DNA of 64,000 nt, taken from Anaerolineae bacterium (GTDB lineage Bacteria > Chloroflexota > Anaerolineae > DUEN01). The stretch lies in the NCBI GenBank assembly GCA_025060615.1, contig JANXBS010000020.1, forward strand, positions 7,319 to 71,318. The letters run 5' to 3'. A program made the position numbers and the translations under genes. Of the stretch, positions 30,571 through 37,806 are shown one piece after another (within the stretch, counting starts at the first letter, position 1; each line of letters begins with the position of its first letter). Below the pieces are notes generated by a model. That model did no database searches and had not been told where the DNA came from. It was given only the letters and a program-made list of their open reading frames with translations.

Positions 30571-31317
30571 TCAGTCACTTGCCAGCCGCACCAGTTTCTC
30601 GCCGTCAATCAGCTCGATGGGCTTGCCGCGCGCCCAGCGGTGAGCCTGTGGCGAGATGTTGGCTGTCGTCACCAAATAGCCGCGGTCAGCTCCTTCATGG
30701 ATGATCACCGCATACAGGTCACGCACGATCGGCTCACCCACGGTGCCCCGATAGCGCTTACATTGGACGATGCCGCGCTCGCCATCCCGATCTACGATCA
30801 GATCAACCCCGTGATCGGCCGTATCCGGTGTGTTGATGACGCGATAGCCGCGGCGGCGGAAGAGCTCGCCTGTCCAGGCCTCGAATTCGCTGGGGGTGAG
30901 CTCAAGGAGTTGGGCCAGGGTGCGCGCTGCCCGCAGTTTCTCCTGGAGGCGCCGCCGCTCTCGTTCAGCGCGCCACCACAGCCATCCCCAAATGCCCCCT
31001 ACGAGGACCGTATGGGTGAGAAACACGGCCCACAGCCAGGATGAGGGGAGTAAGCGCAGGATGAAATCGAGCGGCCGACGGCCTGTGACAGCCCAGCTCA
31101 GGAAGAAGGGAAGATAGAGTAGGATCCAGGCGGCCGTCGCTATGGTCAGGGTACGCATGCCACGGCGGCGAACTCGCCGGATGCGAGCTCGCTGCCACGA
31201 GCGGCTTGCCGGAGGGGTGTAGTACGGCCCTAGCTCCAGACGAGCCTGCTCCTCTGGGTCAATGGTATCGGGGTCATATAGAGGAGAGAGCGATCGCTGC
31301 AATTCCTGCACAGGCAC
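30571..31317 (-). CDS. Membrane-anchored Mrr-type restriction endonuclease domain protein
   Basis: Two TM helices, then FE..T.ELF...GY, DHGVD, IVQCKRY, GYLVTT, IELIDG (Mrr_cat-like PD-QxK fold). Confidence 0.85.
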
Positions 31318-31727: not shown

Positions 31728-32183
31728 GTGGGGCGGAACTGGAGACTTGTGATCTGGGTATTGCTGGGGTGGGCGCTGGCAGGCTGCGTGAATCGGCCAG
31801 CACAAGTGATCGTAGAATGGTCTACAGAGACGGAGGTCAACACCATTGGGTTTAACTTGTATCGGTCGGAGTCGCCAGAGGGGCCGTTCATCCGGGTGAA
31901 CGATCAGCTCATCCCTTCCTCCCCTGATCCGCTGGTAGGAGGCCACTATGTGTACACGGATACCCAGGTGGTCGCCGGCCGCACCTATTACTACGAGCTG
32001 GAGGATGTGGAGGCGAACGGGGTATCCACCCGCCACGGACCCATCGCCGTCACCGCGCAGCCGACATCGCCAGTCTGGGTATGGGCTGTTGCTGGTGCAG
32101 GCCTGGTGTTGGTGCTGGCCTTGGGCTGGCATGGGCTTCGTCATTTTTCGGCTGAATCGAGCCGCCCGGGGCAGCGTAGGTGA
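31728..32183 (+). CDS. Small lipoprotein with an FN3/Ig-like domain and a C-terminal TM helix
   Basis: SD AGGAGA; lipobox LAGC; EWST..E....GFNLYRS...YYYELEDVE..G...HGP; C-terminal VWVWAVAGAGLVLVLALGW plus basic tail. Confidence 0.75.
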   Translation: MGRNWRLVIWVLLGWALAGCVNRPAQVIVEWSTETEVNTIGFNLYRSESPEGPFIRVNDQLIPSSPDPLVGGHYVYTDTQVVAGRTYYYELEDVEANGVSTRHGPIAVTAQPTSPVWVWAVAGAGLVLVLALGWHGLRHFSAESSRPGQRR

Positions 32184-32301: not shown

Positions 32302-34011
32302 TCAGCCCGACGATGGATCAGCCGGCTCGGCTTGCGCCGGCTGGATTCCGCCCCGTCGGGCGATCTCCCGTTGGAGGGATGTCAGCCAATCGGCCTTCTC
32401 ATGAAAGGCTACAGGGAACCAGGCCCAGCCCGATGGCAGTTCCGCATCCTTAGGTAGAACCTCACCGCTGGCGATCAAGGCCACACCGCCTATGTGACAG
32501 GGCACAGCCAAGGGCACGATGTACTCTTGCCCCGCCTCCTGGATCAGGTACTCCCGTTCGGCTTCAATGCCGCAGGCCTTCAGCTCAGCCCATAGGCGCT
32601 CTTGCCGTGAGTTGCCCATCCACAAGTCGTTGATCTCCTGCGCGCGGAGGAGGCGGGAGAGTGTGGTGGGGATGAAGGTGATGCGACGAAGGCGCCGGCT
32701 GGGGATGGGCCGTTCTAGCCGTCGCAGCGGGCCGAGCTCGATCTTATAGTAACGCTCGTAGGCGCGCGGGTGATTTGGTTCCTCGGGCAAGAGCTCCACC
32801 CGGGTCATGATGCGGTAGCGGCGTACCGGCGCGTAATAGTGAATCGCCCACGCCTCGTCGCCGAAGACGCGCGTCTGGTAGAAGGCTAAGTAGTCAGCCG
32901 CCACTAGGCGCGGCGCTCGCGCCAGCGGTATACGGTACCAGCCGGCCTCGCGGGCTAGGGCAAAGTCGCGCAGATTGTTCATGACCACTACGAGCACTCG
33001 GGCTTCCCCTTCGTCCCGATCCGGCCCGATAGCGTACAATTCAGGCGGTTCCATGATCTGACAGGCTCTTGGTTCCAGCCAGGTCGCCAATTCCGGGGCG
33101 TAGCGAGTCAGATCGGCCTGCAAGCGCAGCGCGGCCAGATCACACGCCCGCGCTTCCAACATGACATCGAACGGGCGTTGGCCTTTAGCAGCGCGTAGAA
33201 AGTGGATGAACTCGAAGGGATTCACGTAGTCGGCATGTTGCGTCCACAACGGTGGCTCCAGACGAGTCCCTGCTATTGTCTCGATCTGGCGCACCTCTGT
33301 GCGCGGAGAGGAAAAGTGCACTTTGGGACGCACGCCTTTGGGCCAGGTGTTCAACGCCAGATCGATGGCCTCGGCTAGCTCAATGCCTTCGGGGTTGTGA
33401 TTTAGATAGTGTAGATAGTCGAAGACCAGGGGGACGCCGGTGCGCCGGTGCACGCGGTAGACATCAGCCAGTGAGAAAATGCTGTCATCGTTCTCCAGGG
33501 CTAGACGGCGACGCGTGGCCTCAGGTAGGGCATCGTAGCGAGCGGCCCAGCGCGCGAGGGCTGCTTCGCGGTCCTCATAGGCTCCGCCGACGTGGACGAC
33601 GACCACTGCCTCAGGCCCCAGGCCCATCGCGTCTAGGATGCGCGCCAAGCCGATAAGGTAGCGCGCGGAACGCGCGGCAACGGCCTCCTCGGGCGAGCCC
33701 AGAGCTACATAGGCGCTGGGATGGAAAGACAGGCGCACCCCAAGCGCCGAGGCCATCTCCCCTACCAAGCTTAGCTCGGCCTCACACTCCTCAATCTGGT
33801 GGGCAAACTGTGGCAGGTCAGGATGAGCCAGGTATGGAGCTAGGTCAGCCGCCATGCGATACATGCGCAGGCCTGAGCGCTCCAGATAGCCCAGGATGTC
33901 ACGCAGATAAGCCAAGCTGACGCTGAGGTGAGGGGAATTCTGCCAACGCCGGGTGTCATGTGATTTAAGGCCAGCCTGGCCGAGCACTTTCACGGAAAAG
34001 CCGATGCGCAT
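32302..34011 (-). CDS. uvsE: UV damage endonuclease UvsE fused to a C-terminal PUA/EVE-like + degenerate DUF559-like region
   Basis: MYRMAADL, RLSFHP, VVHVGG, LALENDD, PLVFDYLH, PKVHFSS, HAD, DVMLEA in residues ~1-320, followed by ~235 extra residues. Confidence 0.85.
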   Translation of the reverse strand: MRIGFSVKVLGQAGLKSHDTRRWQNSPHLSVSLAYLRDILGYLERSGLRMYRMAADLAPYLAHPDLPQFAHQIEECEAELSLVGEMASALGVRLSFHPSAYVALGSPEEAVAARSARYLIGLARILDAMGLGPEAVVVVHVGGAYEDREAALARWAARYDALPEATRRRLALENDDSIFSLADVYRVHRRTGVPLVFDYLHYLNHNPEGIELAEAIDLALNTWPKGVRPKVHFSSPRTEVRQIETIAGTRLEPPLWTQHADYVNPFEFIHFLRAAKGQRPFDVMLEARACDLAALRLQADLTRYAPELATWLEPRACQIMEPPELYAIGPDRDEGEARVLVVVMNNLRDFALAREAGWYRIPLARAPRLVAADYLAFYQTRVFGDEAWAIHYYAPVRRYRIMTRVELLPEEPNHPRAYERYYKIELGPLRRLERPIPSRRLRRITFIPTTLSRLLRAQEINDLWMGNSRQERLWAELKACGIEAEREYLIQEAGQEYIVPLAVPCHIGGVALIASGEVLPKDAELPSGWAWFPVAFHEKADWLTSLQREIARRGGIQPAQAEPADPSSG

Positions 34012-34178
34012 ACGGTGGACTTCTCCTGGAAGGTAGCCCTATTGTGCATCCCTACAGTCACCGATGGCTTTCCAGATGAGAGAGTAGTATAATGTCCATG
34101 GAGTTTCATCCGGCAAAGAAACTCCATGATCTCTGAGTTCCGACCGTTGCAGTTCTTGCCCATAGGAGGGTGATTCAG

Positions 34179-35258
34179 ATGTCCGAAAAGACGGCATTCA
34201 CACCTCGCGAACGTGTCAGGCTGGCCCTTGACCACAAAGAGGCCGATCGCATCCCGATCCATGATAGTCCCTGGGCAGCCACGGTCGCTCGTTGGCAACG
34301 AGAGGGCTTGCCGGATGGCATCCCACCAGAGGAGTATTTCGGCTACGAATTGCGGCTGTTCAGCGTGGACCTCACCCCGCAGTATCCCGTGCGTGTCCTC
34401 TACCGATCTGAGGAATACATTGTTGAGACTACGCCTTACGGTGGCGTGCGTAAGAACCATCGGGATTACTCCACCACGCCTGAATTGATAGATTACGGGA
34501 TCAAGACACGGGAGGACTGGGAGGCAGCGAAACGTCGGCTCCAGCCGAGCTACACGCGTGTGGATTGGGTCAAGCTGCGCAACGACTACGAGCGGGCTCG
34601 CAGCGAGGACCTCTTCCTTGCCTACGCCGCCGTTACAGGATATGACCTGTGCCAGGCCTATATCCGTTCAGATGTCCTGCTCCCGCTATTGATCACCGAC
34701 CCTGACTGGATTCGCGACATTGCGGAAACGCAGGCCGATATGGTCATCGAGATGGCCAAGATCCTCATGCAGGAGGGATACGTCTTCGATGCGGCGTTTC
34801 TATTCAATGATATGGGATACCGCAACGGGCCGTTGTTCTCGCCGCGCCTCTATCGCGAGATCTTTCAGCCGGCTGATCGTCGCATGTTCGACTTCTTCCA
34901 CGCTCATGGGATGAAGGTCATCCTGCATTCCTGTGGCAACGTTAGGGAGTTCATCCCCGATCTGCTCGACATCGGCCTAGACTGCCTGCAGCCCTTAGAG
35001 GTCAAGGCCGGCATGGATCTGATCGAGTTGAAACAGCAGTATGGCAAGGACCTGGCGTTCATGGGCGGCATCGATGTGCGGGTCATGAGCGCCCCCGATC
35101 CGGCGGCGCTCGAAAGGGAGATTGCGACCAAGCTCACTGCGGCCAAGGTAGGCGGCGGTTACATTTACCACTCGGATCATTCGGTGCCCAACGACGTCTC
35201 GTTCGCCCAGTATTGCCGAGTATTGGACTTAGTGCGGCAATATGGGCAATACAGCTAG
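34179..35258 (+). CDS. Uroporphyrinogen-decarboxylase-family protein (MtaA/CmuA-like TIM barrel)
   Basis: RERVRLALDHKEADRIP, NDMG, ILHSCG, GGID, YIYHSDHSVP. Start ATG 34179 (SD AGGAGG). Confidence 0.8.
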   Translation: MSEKTAFTPRERVRLALDHKEADRIPIHDSPWAATVARWQREGLPDGIPPEEYFGYELRLFSVDLTPQYPVRVLYRSEEYIVETTPYGGVRKNHRDYSTTPELIDYGIKTREDWEAAKRRLQPSYTRVDWVKLRNDYERARSEDLFLAYAAVTGYDLCQAYIRSDVLLPLLITDPDWIRDIAETQADMVIEMAKILMQEGYVFDAAFLFNDMGYRNGPLFSPRLYREIFQPADRRMFDFFHAHGMKVILHSCGNVREFIPDLLDIGLDCLQPLEVKAGMDLIELKQQYGKDLAFMGGIDVRVMSAPDPAALEREIATKLTAAKVGGGYIYHSDHSVPNDVSFAQYCRVLDLVRQYGQYS

Positions 35259-35273
35259 TTTCTCCCCTAGAAA

Positions 35274-35314
35274 ATATGCCGAGGGGCGCTCGCTATCGTT
35301 GCCCCTCGGCATAT
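35274..35314. terminator. Bidirectional terminator-like hairpin
   Basis: Perfect 14-bp stem ATATGCCGAGGGGC / GCCCCTCGGCATAT between convergent stops at 35258 and 35323. Confidence 0.8.
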
Positions 35315-35322
35315 CGAACGCT

Positions 35323-36444
35323 TTACGGCACGCGGAAGCGGAAAACCCAGGGGCCCTGAATGCGTATCTCCTCGCCGGGACGAGCAGGATCCATCCCCAC
35401 TAGCTCCGTTACCGTGAGCTTCCATCGCCCTCGCCAGCTGGCTAGCGGGACGAAGAAGCTATAGCGATAACAGCCCATCTCCTCATGGGTAGCCCCTGAG
35501 ACGATCACCTCGGCACTAGCCCCCGTGTCGGCACGGCGCCTACTCCCTGCCTCTAGAGTGGCCACGGGCACCCAGTGTTCGCTCTTCCCCGTTGGTGGAT
35601 TAAAGCACAGGATGGCTCGCGTTTCGGAAGGGGTAACCACCACGCGCTCTAGTCGTATGGTTACATCACCCGTCTTCACGCTCCTATGGACCAAGGCAAC
35701 TCGACCTGGGATGAAGGGCACACTGAAGTCAAAAGTGAAGGGGCCAGCTAGCAACTCCTCACGCATCTGCATAGCGGGCGCAAGGGTCACAGTAGCGGCC
35801 GGCGGCAACTCAACCATGTTCTCCATAGGCTGTATGCCGCTCACCGGCATCAGGGCCACCAGATCTATTTTCAGATGCAGATTCAACGTCGTTGGCTGCC
35901 CCTGAATTGCTGACGCATCAAAGGCGGCAATATAGGCGCCCTGTCCAGGTGACAGTTGAACCCCCAAGATTTCAGACGCGCCCGCTATCCCCGCCCCTCC
36001 CATCTCAGGAAAGCGAGTGCCCTGGTCATCTGTCAGCGTGACTCTCGCCAGATTGGGATTTTGGTCCGGCGGTCCGCTCACGGTATAGCCCACTAGAATC
36101 TGATTGGCATCGGCATAGATTCGCTCCAGGGTGACCGTCCAGTCACCTATCGTCTGGCTGAGGTGCACCTTCTGAGTCAGATGCGTTTCTTCCACGTGCT
36201 GCCAGCTGCGAGCGAACTGGAACACTTGGCTTATTACTGGGCCGATGGCATAGGCTGCCGCGCCCACCATTAGGAATAGGCCTAGGGCCAAGATAGTCCA
36301 GCCTAAGCGGGTGATAGGCCGTGAGTGGACCTGGCGCACCTGAGGTGATACCTGAGCACGGATCGTTGGCCATAGATCCAAACTATTGGGCACTTCCTGC
36401 TCAGCCAACTCGCGCAATAGGCGTGTAAAGCGATGCTCTGTCAT
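35323..36444 (-). CDS. Probable transmembrane anti-sigma factor (DUF4179-like extracytoplasmic domain)
   Basis: Short N-terminus (LDLWPTIR), one TM, SQTIGDWTVTLERIYADANQILVGY...LTDDQG, and a second Ig-like repeat; directly downstream of an ECF sigma gene. Confidence 0.7.
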   Translation of the reverse strand: MTEHRFTRLLRELAEQEVPNSLDLWPTIRAQVSPQVRQVHSRPITRLGWTILALGLFLMVGAAAYAIGPVISQVFQFARSWQHVEETHLTQKVHLSQTIGDWTVTLERIYADANQILVGYTVSGPPDQNPNLARVTLTDDQGTRFPEMGGAGIAGASEILGVQLSPGQGAYIAAFDASAIQGQPTTLNLHLKIDLVALMPVSGIQPMENMVELPPAATVTLAPAMQMREELLAGPFTFDFSVPFIPGRVALVHRSVKTGDVTIRLERVVVTPSETRAILCFNPPTGKSEHWVPVATLEAGSRRRADTGASAEVIVSGATHEEMGCYRYSFFVPLASWRGRWKLTVTELVGMDPARPGEEIRIQGPWVFRFRVP

Positions 36445-36501
36445 TGGTTTCCCTCCTCGATTACAGAAAATCTCAGCAGGCGTTCAGGAAGGCGAAGCTG
36501 A

Positions 36502-37068
36502 TCAAGGCGAGTCATCCCACAATGGGCGCAGAAGCGCGCGCAGGCGCTCACGTGCAGCGTGCAACCGCCACTTGACTGTGCCCGTCGGGCAGGCTAGTGT
36601 ATCGGCCAGCTCAGCCTCATTCAGGCCCAGGTAGTAGCGCAGGACGATCGCTGCCCGTTGCGTCGGAGGCAAAGATTCTAACGCAACCCGGACGGCCTGA
36701 CTCGTCTCGGCAGCCTCGGCCAACTCCACCGGCCCAGGGGCTGGATCGGCCAGAGATTCCACCCAAGATGCCTCATCGTCCAGCTCCGCCTCCAGGGAAA
36801 TCTGGCGCTCACGCTGGGCAGCGGCCTTCACTGCGTCGTTGACGACGCTGCGCAGGAACCAAGGACCGAAGGGCCGGCCACTGTCGAACTGGCTGATACG
36901 CTCGTAGGCCCGTAGGAAAGCCGCTTGAACGATGTCTTCAGCCAAGGCTCGATCTCGGGTGATCAATGTGGCGGCCCGCACTGCTTGTACCTGATAGCGA
37001 CGGACCAGCACTTCTAGCCCGGAGATGTCCCCCCGTTTTAACCGGGCGATCGCCTCGTGCTCTTCCAT
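36502..37068 (-). CDS. ECF RNA polymerase sigma-70 factor
   Basis: LAEDIVQAAFLRAY...F.PWFLR, LPPTQRAAIVLRYY, CPTGTVKWRLHAARERLR. Start moved to ATG 37068 (SD GGAGG). Confidence 0.93.
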   Translation of the reverse strand: MEEHEAIARLKRGDISGLEVLVRRYQVQAVRAATLITRDRALAEDIVQAAFLRAYERISQFDSGRPFGPWFLRSVVNDAVKAAAQRERQISLEAELDDEASWVESLADPAPGPVELAEAAETSQAVRVALESLPPTQRAAIVLRYYLGLNEAELADTLACPTGTVKWRLHAARERLRALLRPLWDDSP

Positions 37069-37806
37069 GCACGCCCCTCCCCAAAAGTGAGAAGAAGATA
37101 ATCGTGAGGGCCCTCTACAGACATTATCCTTAAGCAGGAAAAAAGGTTGGGAGGACTCAGAATTGGAGAAACTTAGCCAGCAAAATAGGGGAAGGCGGCA
37201 CTGCCTAGTAAAGACCATTGTAGTGACGCCCGCAAAGGGCCAACACGAAGCTTAGCTCTGCCAGGGGTTCGCGCACCTGACGCACAAGAAGGGACGCCTA
37301 TGGTCGTAGAGATGCGGGTTTGCGTACAACTGGTGGCGAAATCAATAAAAAAAGTCAGCGCGCTTTTCAGGTCACAACTGTATGCTCCGACCGAACCGGC
37401 ATTGCTGTCATTGATTACTTCCATGGTCCGGTCAGAACCAGTGCCGTAACGCGCGTACATAGGCGCATAGTCACTTCTGACGTAGCTGATGCACAGGGAG
37501 CCATCCGATCGCAGCACTAGAGAAAAGTTAGCATTGGTTAGGCAGACGCTTGACTCGTATCACATGCTTTCCGATCCCTAGACATCTCGTTAGCTATACT
37601 AGCTCGGACAACCATACTCACGACATCGGCGAAGCGTCCTATAGTGGGCACATTTTTCGAACTGAATTGGCTGATGAATGGCACAGAAAGACAGCAGCAA
37701 CGCTCCAAAGACGCTCAGAGGCAAGCGGAACACTACAGTGGCAAGAGAAAGCTCATATCGACAAGAACCTCCCGTTGGCTAACATCATTGCCTCATCTCT
37801 CTTATC

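Follow-up and report, generated by a model that had tools for sequence, protein, structure and literature searches.

The window analysed here, a 64,000-nt stretch of contig JANXBS010000020.1 (positions 7,319 to 71,318 of the forward strand) from the Anaerolineae bacterium assembly GCA_025060615.1, contains on its minus strand a single open reading frame (ORF) that joins a UvsE/UVDE-type endonuclease to a PUA-like domain and a degenerate DUF559/Vsr-like nuclease domain. Our preferred reading, which we consider about evenly probable, is that the product is a single-chain version of a Chloroflexota repair module made up of uvsE and a PUA-like/DUF559 gene (hereafter PUA-DUF559), and that its PUA-like domain is a predicted reader of bases or lesions that assists UvsE. 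The parts of the gene, in coordinates of the window, are as follows.

32302..34011, minus strand: complete fused gene, one ORF of 569 amino acids (aa) plus the stop codon (32302-32304)
33076..34011, minus strand: UvsE/UVDE triosephosphate isomerase (TIM)-barrel endonuclease domain, aa 1-312, active site intact
33706..33723, minus strand: UvsE probing finger, aa 97-102 (HPSAYV), remodelled: the canonical Gln is Ala100, and Tyr101 is kept
33004..33075, minus strand: inter-domain linker, aa 313-336, poorly conserved and predicted to be disordered
32614..33003, minus strand: β-pseudobarrel domain of PUA-like (ASCH/YTH-like) type, aa 337-466, more conserved than any other part
32305..32613, minus strand: degenerate DUF559/Vsr-like PD-(D/E)xK domain, aa 467-569, with acidic motifs lost and a helix segment deleted

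The sequence-only reading of this stretch had singled out 32302-33010, which corresponds to aa 334-569 and the stop codon, and the peptides it quoted (VLVVVMNNLRDFALAREAGWYRIP, YLAFYQT, AIHYYAPV, YYKIELG, RRITFIPTT, ERLWAELK, GIEAEREY, YIVPLA and VALIASG) are all present in the 569-aa translation. The three-domain architecture that it proposed was borne out, with UvsE at aa 1-312 followed, after a disordered linker, by the PUA-like domain (~337-466) and the DUF559/Vsr-like remnant (467-569). The fusion is a real, conserved Chloroflexota gene and not a sequencing error. The identical 569-aa protein, with the same neighbours, is encoded on a 254-kb contig of the NCBI metagenome-assembled genome (MAG) GCA_033581235.1 and again in the independent Logan assembly of SRR15826899. 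In addition, ~74 clusters of fused homologues (470-627 aa, identity down to 46%) were recovered, defined as the full-length search matches ranked before the first ordinary ~320-aa UvsE. The earlier view that the fusion is genuine therefore stands, and a missed stop codon is excluded. Eight clade members (74-100% identity) keep the frame open, and Met320 of the linker varies among the eight closest relatives, which leaves the clade without a conserved internal start.

Conservation is unevenly spread along the protein. Within the clade, identity to the window protein is 85-94% in the PUA-like domain, 77-92% in UvsE, 33-83% in the linker, 67-81% in the first half of the nuclease remnant and 40-73% in its last 55 aa (515-569). 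The C-terminal 257 aa have >2500 homologues, which means that they are conserved far beyond chance; aa 313-569 gave no Pfam match at E ≤ 10, no NCBIfam match and no PADLOC match. A full-length AlphaFold2 (AF2) model built with the 74 fused sequences reached a predicted local distance difference test score (pLDDT) of 88.8 and a predicted template modelling score (pTM) of 0.87, with disorder only at aa 319-331, where pLDDT is <50. The high pTM despite the disordered linker suggests that the three domains may hold a defined mutual arrangement.

The UvsE barrel is predicted to be catalytically intact. PF03851 matched aa ~30-300 with 155.6 bits (cutoff 24, E 2e-45), and the equivalog model TIGR00629 matched with 137.1 bits against a cutoff of 124.45. 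In the match to Thermus UVDE (PDB 2j6v, E 3e-30) the motifs HP, H.GG, LENDD, D..H and K.H are aligned, and the residues of the three-metal site align to those of the Thermus enzyme, including the positions mutated in 3c0q (E175A) and 3c0l (K229R). H97, H140, E173, D198, H201, K230, H232, H259, D261 and E286 are invariant in the 74 fused proteins. At Asn174 of LENDD, which the window protein retains, 58 of the 74 have His. The TIM barrel, the complete three-metal site and the TIGR00629 score above cutoff are shared with the characterised UVDE/UvsE enzymes (Thermus 2J6V, Sulfolobus 3TC3/4GLE, Deinococcus UvsE and Schizosaccharomyces pombe Uve1), to which the fused protein adds a ~250-aa C-terminal extension of PUA-like and DUF559-like domains. 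To our knowledge, no such extension has been reported for a characterised UVDE.

The middle domain appears, with moderate confidence, to have a PUA-like fold and to represent an undescribed family closest to ASCH and YTH. The AF2 model of aa 314-569, built with 89 sequences, had a pLDDT of 88.9 overall and 91-98 across the PUA-like domain. The 50 top Foldseek matches in the PDB were all members of the PUA clan (ASCH, YTH, TTHA0113 2dp9 and AF2351 2kku), with E from 1e-3 to 3e-2 and target-normalised TM-scores (TMt) up to 0.54, the best being ZmASCH of Zymomonas (5y6b, E 1.2e-3, TMt 0.53). The ASCH and YTH structures that matched best (ZmASCH 5GUQ/5Y6B, YTHDC1, YTHDF2 and Mmi1; probability ~1.0) are only 12-17% identical to the domain and gave no sequence-profile match, and, in contrast to these mostly RNA-acting proteins, the PUA-like domain of the window protein sits between two DNA nucleases. 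The family has no Pfam or NCBIfam model, and no Pfam match was found in the region for the window protein or any of the 89 family members. When the family sequence profile was compared with the PDB, nothing matched the PUA-like part, so the fold assignment comes from AF2 and Foldseek alone. The sequence-only reading had described the domain as EVE/PUA-like; the PUA-like fold was upheld by Foldseek and the EVE family was not, as EVE (PF01878) matched neither aa 313-569 of the window protein (E ≤ 10) nor the 89 homologues and no EVE structure was among the 50 top Foldseek matches.

Residues W358, Y359, R360, P362, Y378, F383, R404, H414, R416, Y421, S438, R442, R443, F446, T449 and W464 of the PUA-like domain are invariant in the family. 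A phmmer search with this domain alone against 1.84 billion representatives returned 766 clusters at E ≤ 1e-3, mostly proteins of 130-290 aa with the domain at the N-terminus, and extended its range outside Chloroflexota to Dadabacteria and Kapabacteria. Rarer architectures (P0317, P0342, P0346, P0264 and P0242) comprised PUA+DUF559+HhH+RadC/JAB, PUA+DUF559+S-adenosylmethionine (SAM)-methyltransferase, PUA+DUF559+HEAT repeats, PUA+DUF3800 and tandem PUA-PUA. About 33 of the fused clusters are reduced to UvsE and the PUA-like domain only. Its superior conservation and its retention after loss of the nuclease argue that the PUA-like domain is the constrained core and the indispensable partner of UvsE.

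For the tail, the sequence-only reading had named a DUF559/Vsr-like nuclease, and this assignment held. The family profile matches PDB 3hrl, a DUF559 'endonuclease-like protein', over its C-terminal ~100 positions (E 1.2e-5), and 60 and 48 of the 89 family members match PF04480 and PF18741, respectively. The window tail itself matches neither model, and a hidden Markov model (HMM) of the stand-alone nuclease domains aligned to it with 58.8 bits, placing 'vvDFA' over 'IVPLA'. By this score the window tail appears clearly homologous to the stand-alone DUF559/Vsr-like nuclease domains; its homology to DUF559 is transitive, since it resembles the stand-alone domains and these in turn resemble PF04480 and 3hrl. 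Relative to DUF559 (PF04480), the MTES_1575 REase family and the Vsr-like PD-(D/E)xK endonucleases (PDB 3HRL), the order α-β-β-β-(α)-β-α is preserved in the window copy, which scores below every Pfam threshold. Where the family consensus reads VDFA...C(E/D)G(E/D)...RER..DY.L..GW.VLRF, the window protein has IVPLA...ASGE and a deletion of ~13 residues that removes the RER..DY.L helix segment. The earlier statement that both acidic positions are replaced is correct for the near-invariant Asp of the family, now Pro500, and for the first acidic position of β3, now Ser515 (CEGE to ASGE), while Glu517 is retained.

The C-terminal module is also widespread as a separate gene. The top 120 homologues of the C-terminal 257 aa are all stand-alone proteins of ~245-260 aa, and three stand-alone homologues that were looked up each lie closely downstream of a uvsE gene encoding 317-319 aa, with a 4-nt overlap, a 4-nt gap or a single gene between the two, in otherwise unrelated neighbourhoods. 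At the species level, the best 80 loci of 354 matching GTDB species genomes were sampled. All 80 were from Chloroflexota, and the best genome matches were all Anaerolineae or Caldilineae MAGs, the closest 83% identical. The loci were distributed as follows.

17 loci: uvsE fused in frame
36 loci: PUA-DUF559 gene directly downstream of uvsE
9 loci: PUA-DUF559 gene within 0.25-2.6 kb of uvsE
14 loci: no uvsE within 4 kb upstream
4 loci: cut by a contig end and not evaluable

PUA-DUF559 was thus linked to uvsE in 62 of the 76 evaluable loci. At the 14 loci without an upstream uvsE, no alternative conserved partner was seen by ORF inspection, which was noisy, with spurious ORFs arising from high GC. 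From this distribution, the PUA-DUF559 module appears to be ancestrally a separate gene downstream of uvsE, and the fusion appears to derive from a conserved Chloroflexota gene pair, possibly more than once. Neighbour-joining (NJ) trees built from the UvsE domain intermix fused with unfused sequences and do not separate a single fusion from several.

The state of the nuclease domain differs between these arrangements. Unfused proteins mostly keep the motif E..(V/I/A)DFA..acidic..RE(R)..DY.L..GW.VLR. At the species level, 4 of the 17 fused loci are wholly without the nuclease domain, 5 carry VP[FL]AV or VPIAV without the Asp and 1 carries AGLTI without the Asp; the other 7 keep the Asp but lack the β3 acidic residues and/or the RE segment. 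Decay of the nuclease thus seems to track the fusion, and the nuclease is apparently dispensable once the two proteins are covalently joined. Six unfused genes (L065, L076, L085, L080, L089 and L090) also have a degenerate motif, with IAIAI, MPIAI or VPIAV for DFA, and the products of some of them are longer by ~130 aa at the N-terminus; nuclease decay is thus found outside the fusions too.

A second change concerns the probing finger of UvsE, in which HPSAYV of the window protein aligns to HPGQYV of Thermus thermophilus UVDE. In solved UVDEs, Gln104 and Tyr105 (Thermus numbering) insert between the strands and help to flip the lesion and the opposite purines (PMC3553973). The Tyr stacks on a flipped adenine, and the Gln forms a hydrogen bond with the base on the 5′ side of the lesion (PMC3553973). 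The Gln conserved in characterised UVDEs is Ala100 in the window protein and occurs in none of the 74 fused homologues (Ala in 33, Ser in 25, Leu in 6, Ile in 5, others in the rest), 49 of which also have His for the finger Tyr. In the 45 closest unfused UvsE proteins, the Gln is present in 41 and the Tyr in 43. The Gln position is the most discriminating column of the whole UvsE domain, and both of its neighbours rank within the top eight. In the species-level sample, the finger Gln was found at 0 of 17 fused loci; of the 42 unfused loci at which the finger could be read, 19 have it (adjacent, 13 of 33; nearby, 6 of 9), and other loops of unfused UvsE proteins were non-canonical as well (HLSMST, HLPLVS and HLQLST). 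Loss of the Gln as a trait of the fusion only was accordingly rejected, many unfused UvsE proteins next to the partner gene in this sample also being without it. Because the Gln is absent at so many unfused loci, finger remodelling appears to be a trait of partner-associated Chloroflexota UvsE in general that is complete in the fused forms.

Taken together, these features are consistent with the following mechanism. The UvsE TIM barrel would incise 5′ of a lesion. A flexible linker of ~20 aa tethers the PUA-like domain, which is predicted to pack onto the remainder of the protein and would most likely bind nucleic acid and capture an extrahelical base, damaged or orphan; the domain may assist or alter lesion recognition, partly substituting for the lost or remodelled Gln-Tyr finger. 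The DUF559/Vsr-like part of the window protein would be an inactive structural remnant, and in many unfused partners the domain is probably still a nickase, with which a second incision would be possible. The steps that we infer are that the domain binds a flipped base, that it works together with UvsE on DNA and that the protein serves repair rather than defence. More tentatively, the PUA-like domain may have taken over base capture from the UvsE finger and so retargeted the nickase to another lesion or modified base, in which case a reader acting in cis would be a novel way of recognising lesions, and the ancestral PUA-DUF559 partner may have supplied a second incision, which would amount to an unrecognised dual-incision excision pathway in Chloroflexota.

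Several observations weigh against a repair module with a dedicated base reader. Finger remodelling is not exclusive to the fusions, the Gln being absent at 23 of the 42 unfused readable loci, and, given the unresolved NJ tree, the fused lineages may stem from few independent events. The Foldseek matches are modest (E ~1e-3, TM ~0.5), and ASCH and YTH, the nearest to the domain in structure, work mostly on RNA. The PUA-DUF559 gene has no uvsE within 4 kb in 14 of 76 genomes, and one distant homologue, P0361, lies in a GmrSD and toxin-antitoxin context.

The genes around the fusion were also considered. A 248-aa protein encoded at 30571..31317 on the minus strand combines a hydrophobic, membrane-like region at its N-terminus with an Mrr_cat domain (E 2e-32) at its C-terminus and matches the PADLOC models mREase_IV and PDC-S02; its gene adjoins a YceG/MltG gene. 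The sequence-only reading had noted that the fusion lies ~1 kb from this Mrr-type gene. An Mrr homologue was present within 4 kb at only 2 of the 80 loci, those of the two closest relatives, at a distance of 3.2 kb rather than 1 kb in one of them, and none was found beside P0180. The Mrr gene was consequently rejected as part of the system, its proximity being synteny between close relatives with no functional link. Between the fusion and Mrr genes, on the opposite strand, a 151-aa ORF (31728-32183, plus strand) encodes a protein that begins with a signal of lipoprotein type (…LAGC) and has a hydrophobic segment at its C-terminus. It has no Pfam match and is probably a real gene, as ORFs of 58-77% identity occupy the same position in loci L011-L014. 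Upstream of the fusion gene (34170-37218) the plus strand carries a URO-D-like (PF01208) gene and the minus strand DUF4179 (anti-sigma-like) and extracytoplasmic function (ECF) sigma-70 genes, an arrangement that is the same in the NCBI contig and has no evident link to the fusion. The neighbourhoods of the window gene and its relatives that were examined are housekeeping in character, and PADLOC matched neither the fusion nor the stand-alone proteins. The context of P0361 (L091, 4001-6949, in the Candidatus Kapabacteria MAG GCA_004292595.1) is defence-island-like, unlike the uvsE context in Chloroflexota: P0361 overlaps an upstream PRiA4_ORF3 gene, and on its downstream side lie a GmrSD type IV restriction gene, 30 nt away, and DUF2281/YoeB toxin-antitoxin genes.

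This last context bears on the alternative that survives best, although we regard it as unlikely, namely a type IV-like modification-dependent nicking or restriction system in which the PUA-like domain reads 5-methylcytosine (5mC), 5-hydroxymethylcytosine (5hmC) or N6-methyladenine (6mA) in foreign DNA and UvsE, together with DUF559 in unfused systems, cuts beside it. In essence, this is the retargeting to modified DNA that the sequence-only reading suggested. Modification-dependent restriction endonucleases such as TspA15I, the SRA-HNH and EVE-HNH enzymes and YenY4I have as their hallmark a PUA-superfamily reader at the N-terminus and a nuclease at the C-terminus (PMC6765204), and the stand-alone ancestor shares this layout. 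The Kapabacteria homologue directly upstream of GmrSD and near YoeB/DUF2281 is 41% identical in the PUA-like domain, another distant homologue lies ~3.4 kb from an Eco57I-type restriction-modification gene, and a change of substrate could underlie the altered probing finger. Unlike those enzymes, however, the proteins described here have a reader of an undescribed family without EVE, SRA, PUA, ASCH or YTH Pfam matches and a nuclease that is DUF559/Vsr-like rather than HNH, and their genes are uvsE-linked, in housekeeping contexts and without PADLOC matches. The best 80 of the 354 loci are all in Chloroflexota, and the examined neighbourhoods differ from one another, unlike patchy defence islands. 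The UvsE part scores as a TIGR00629 equivalog with a complete active site, a lone single-strand nickase would make a poor restriction enzyme, and the Mrr neighbour is not conserved. The lineage-wide uvsE-linked pair, the housekeeping contexts and the lack of a PADLOC match fit a repair accessory better than a modification-dependent restriction enzyme.

A role resembling very-short-patch (VSP) repair of deaminated or mismatched bases, in which the PUA-like domain would recognise a methylated or deaminated base context and the Vsr-like nuclease and/or UvsE would nick beside the mismatch, is rather improbable. Uve1-type enzymes are reported to nick some mismatches and abasic sites, and the partner domain is DUF559/Vsr-like. 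It would also agree with this role that SRA and EVE domains of the PUA clan read 5mC/5hmC (PMC6765204) and that abasic sites, too, are cut by UVDE (PMC3553973). None of the loci examined showed an adjacent cytosine methyltransferase, however, and the Vsr-like active site appears dispensable in the fused lineages; the Joint Genome Institute (JGI) name 'very-short-patch-repair endonuclease' is only a COG-derived label. We consider it similarly improbable that the PUA-like domain acts on RNA or is an ASCH-type hydrolase (an RNase or N-acyl-base amidohydrolase) with only a loose tie to UvsE, through which repair might be connected with transcripts or R-loops. Its top structural matches are ZmASCH, for which the deposited structures include active-site mutants, and the N6-methyladenosine (m6A)-RNA-binding YTH domains, and a catalytic site could be made up of its invariant Tyr, Ser, His and Arg; yet the domain nearly always occurs in one chain with DNA nucleases (DUF559, UvsE, and RadC/HhH in P0317) and has no sequence similarity to any ASCH or YTH model. 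Finally, an artefactual or non-functional fusion (missed stop, assembly error or decaying pseudogene), conceivable in that the genes of unfused relatives are 4 nt apart or overlap by 4 nt and a 1-nt error could therefore fuse them, is effectively refuted by the identical ORF in two independent assemblies, the open frame kept in the eight clade members and in 74 clusters overall, and a PUA-like domain more constrained than UvsE.

UvsE/UVDE is seen as a single-domain enzyme that starts alternative excision repair on its own, and the processing of its nicks in bacteria is poorly defined. The components of the fused protein come from known superfamilies; the obligate association with UvsE, the fusion, the nuclease decay and the finger remodelling appear undescribed. 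A search of the accessible library found no paper pairing UvdE/UvsE with a DUF559, PUA-like or EVE domain, and a broader search returned only general reviews and a restriction-enzyme screen (PMC6765204). Here uvsE is tied to a putative PUA-like reader and a Vsr-like nuclease across a bacterial lineage (354 GTDB species genomes have relatives), strongly enough for the genes to have fused, and in the fused proteins the nuclease has decayed and the lesion-probing finger of the enzyme is rewritten. If the preferred reading of a UvsE-based repair module is correct, the PUA-like protein would be a concrete candidate for an accessory factor in UvsE-initiated DNA repair and would add a new, unannotated PUA-like family to the readers of nucleic-acid bases, and the fused lineages may represent a natural experiment in how reader domains reprogram a repair nuclease.

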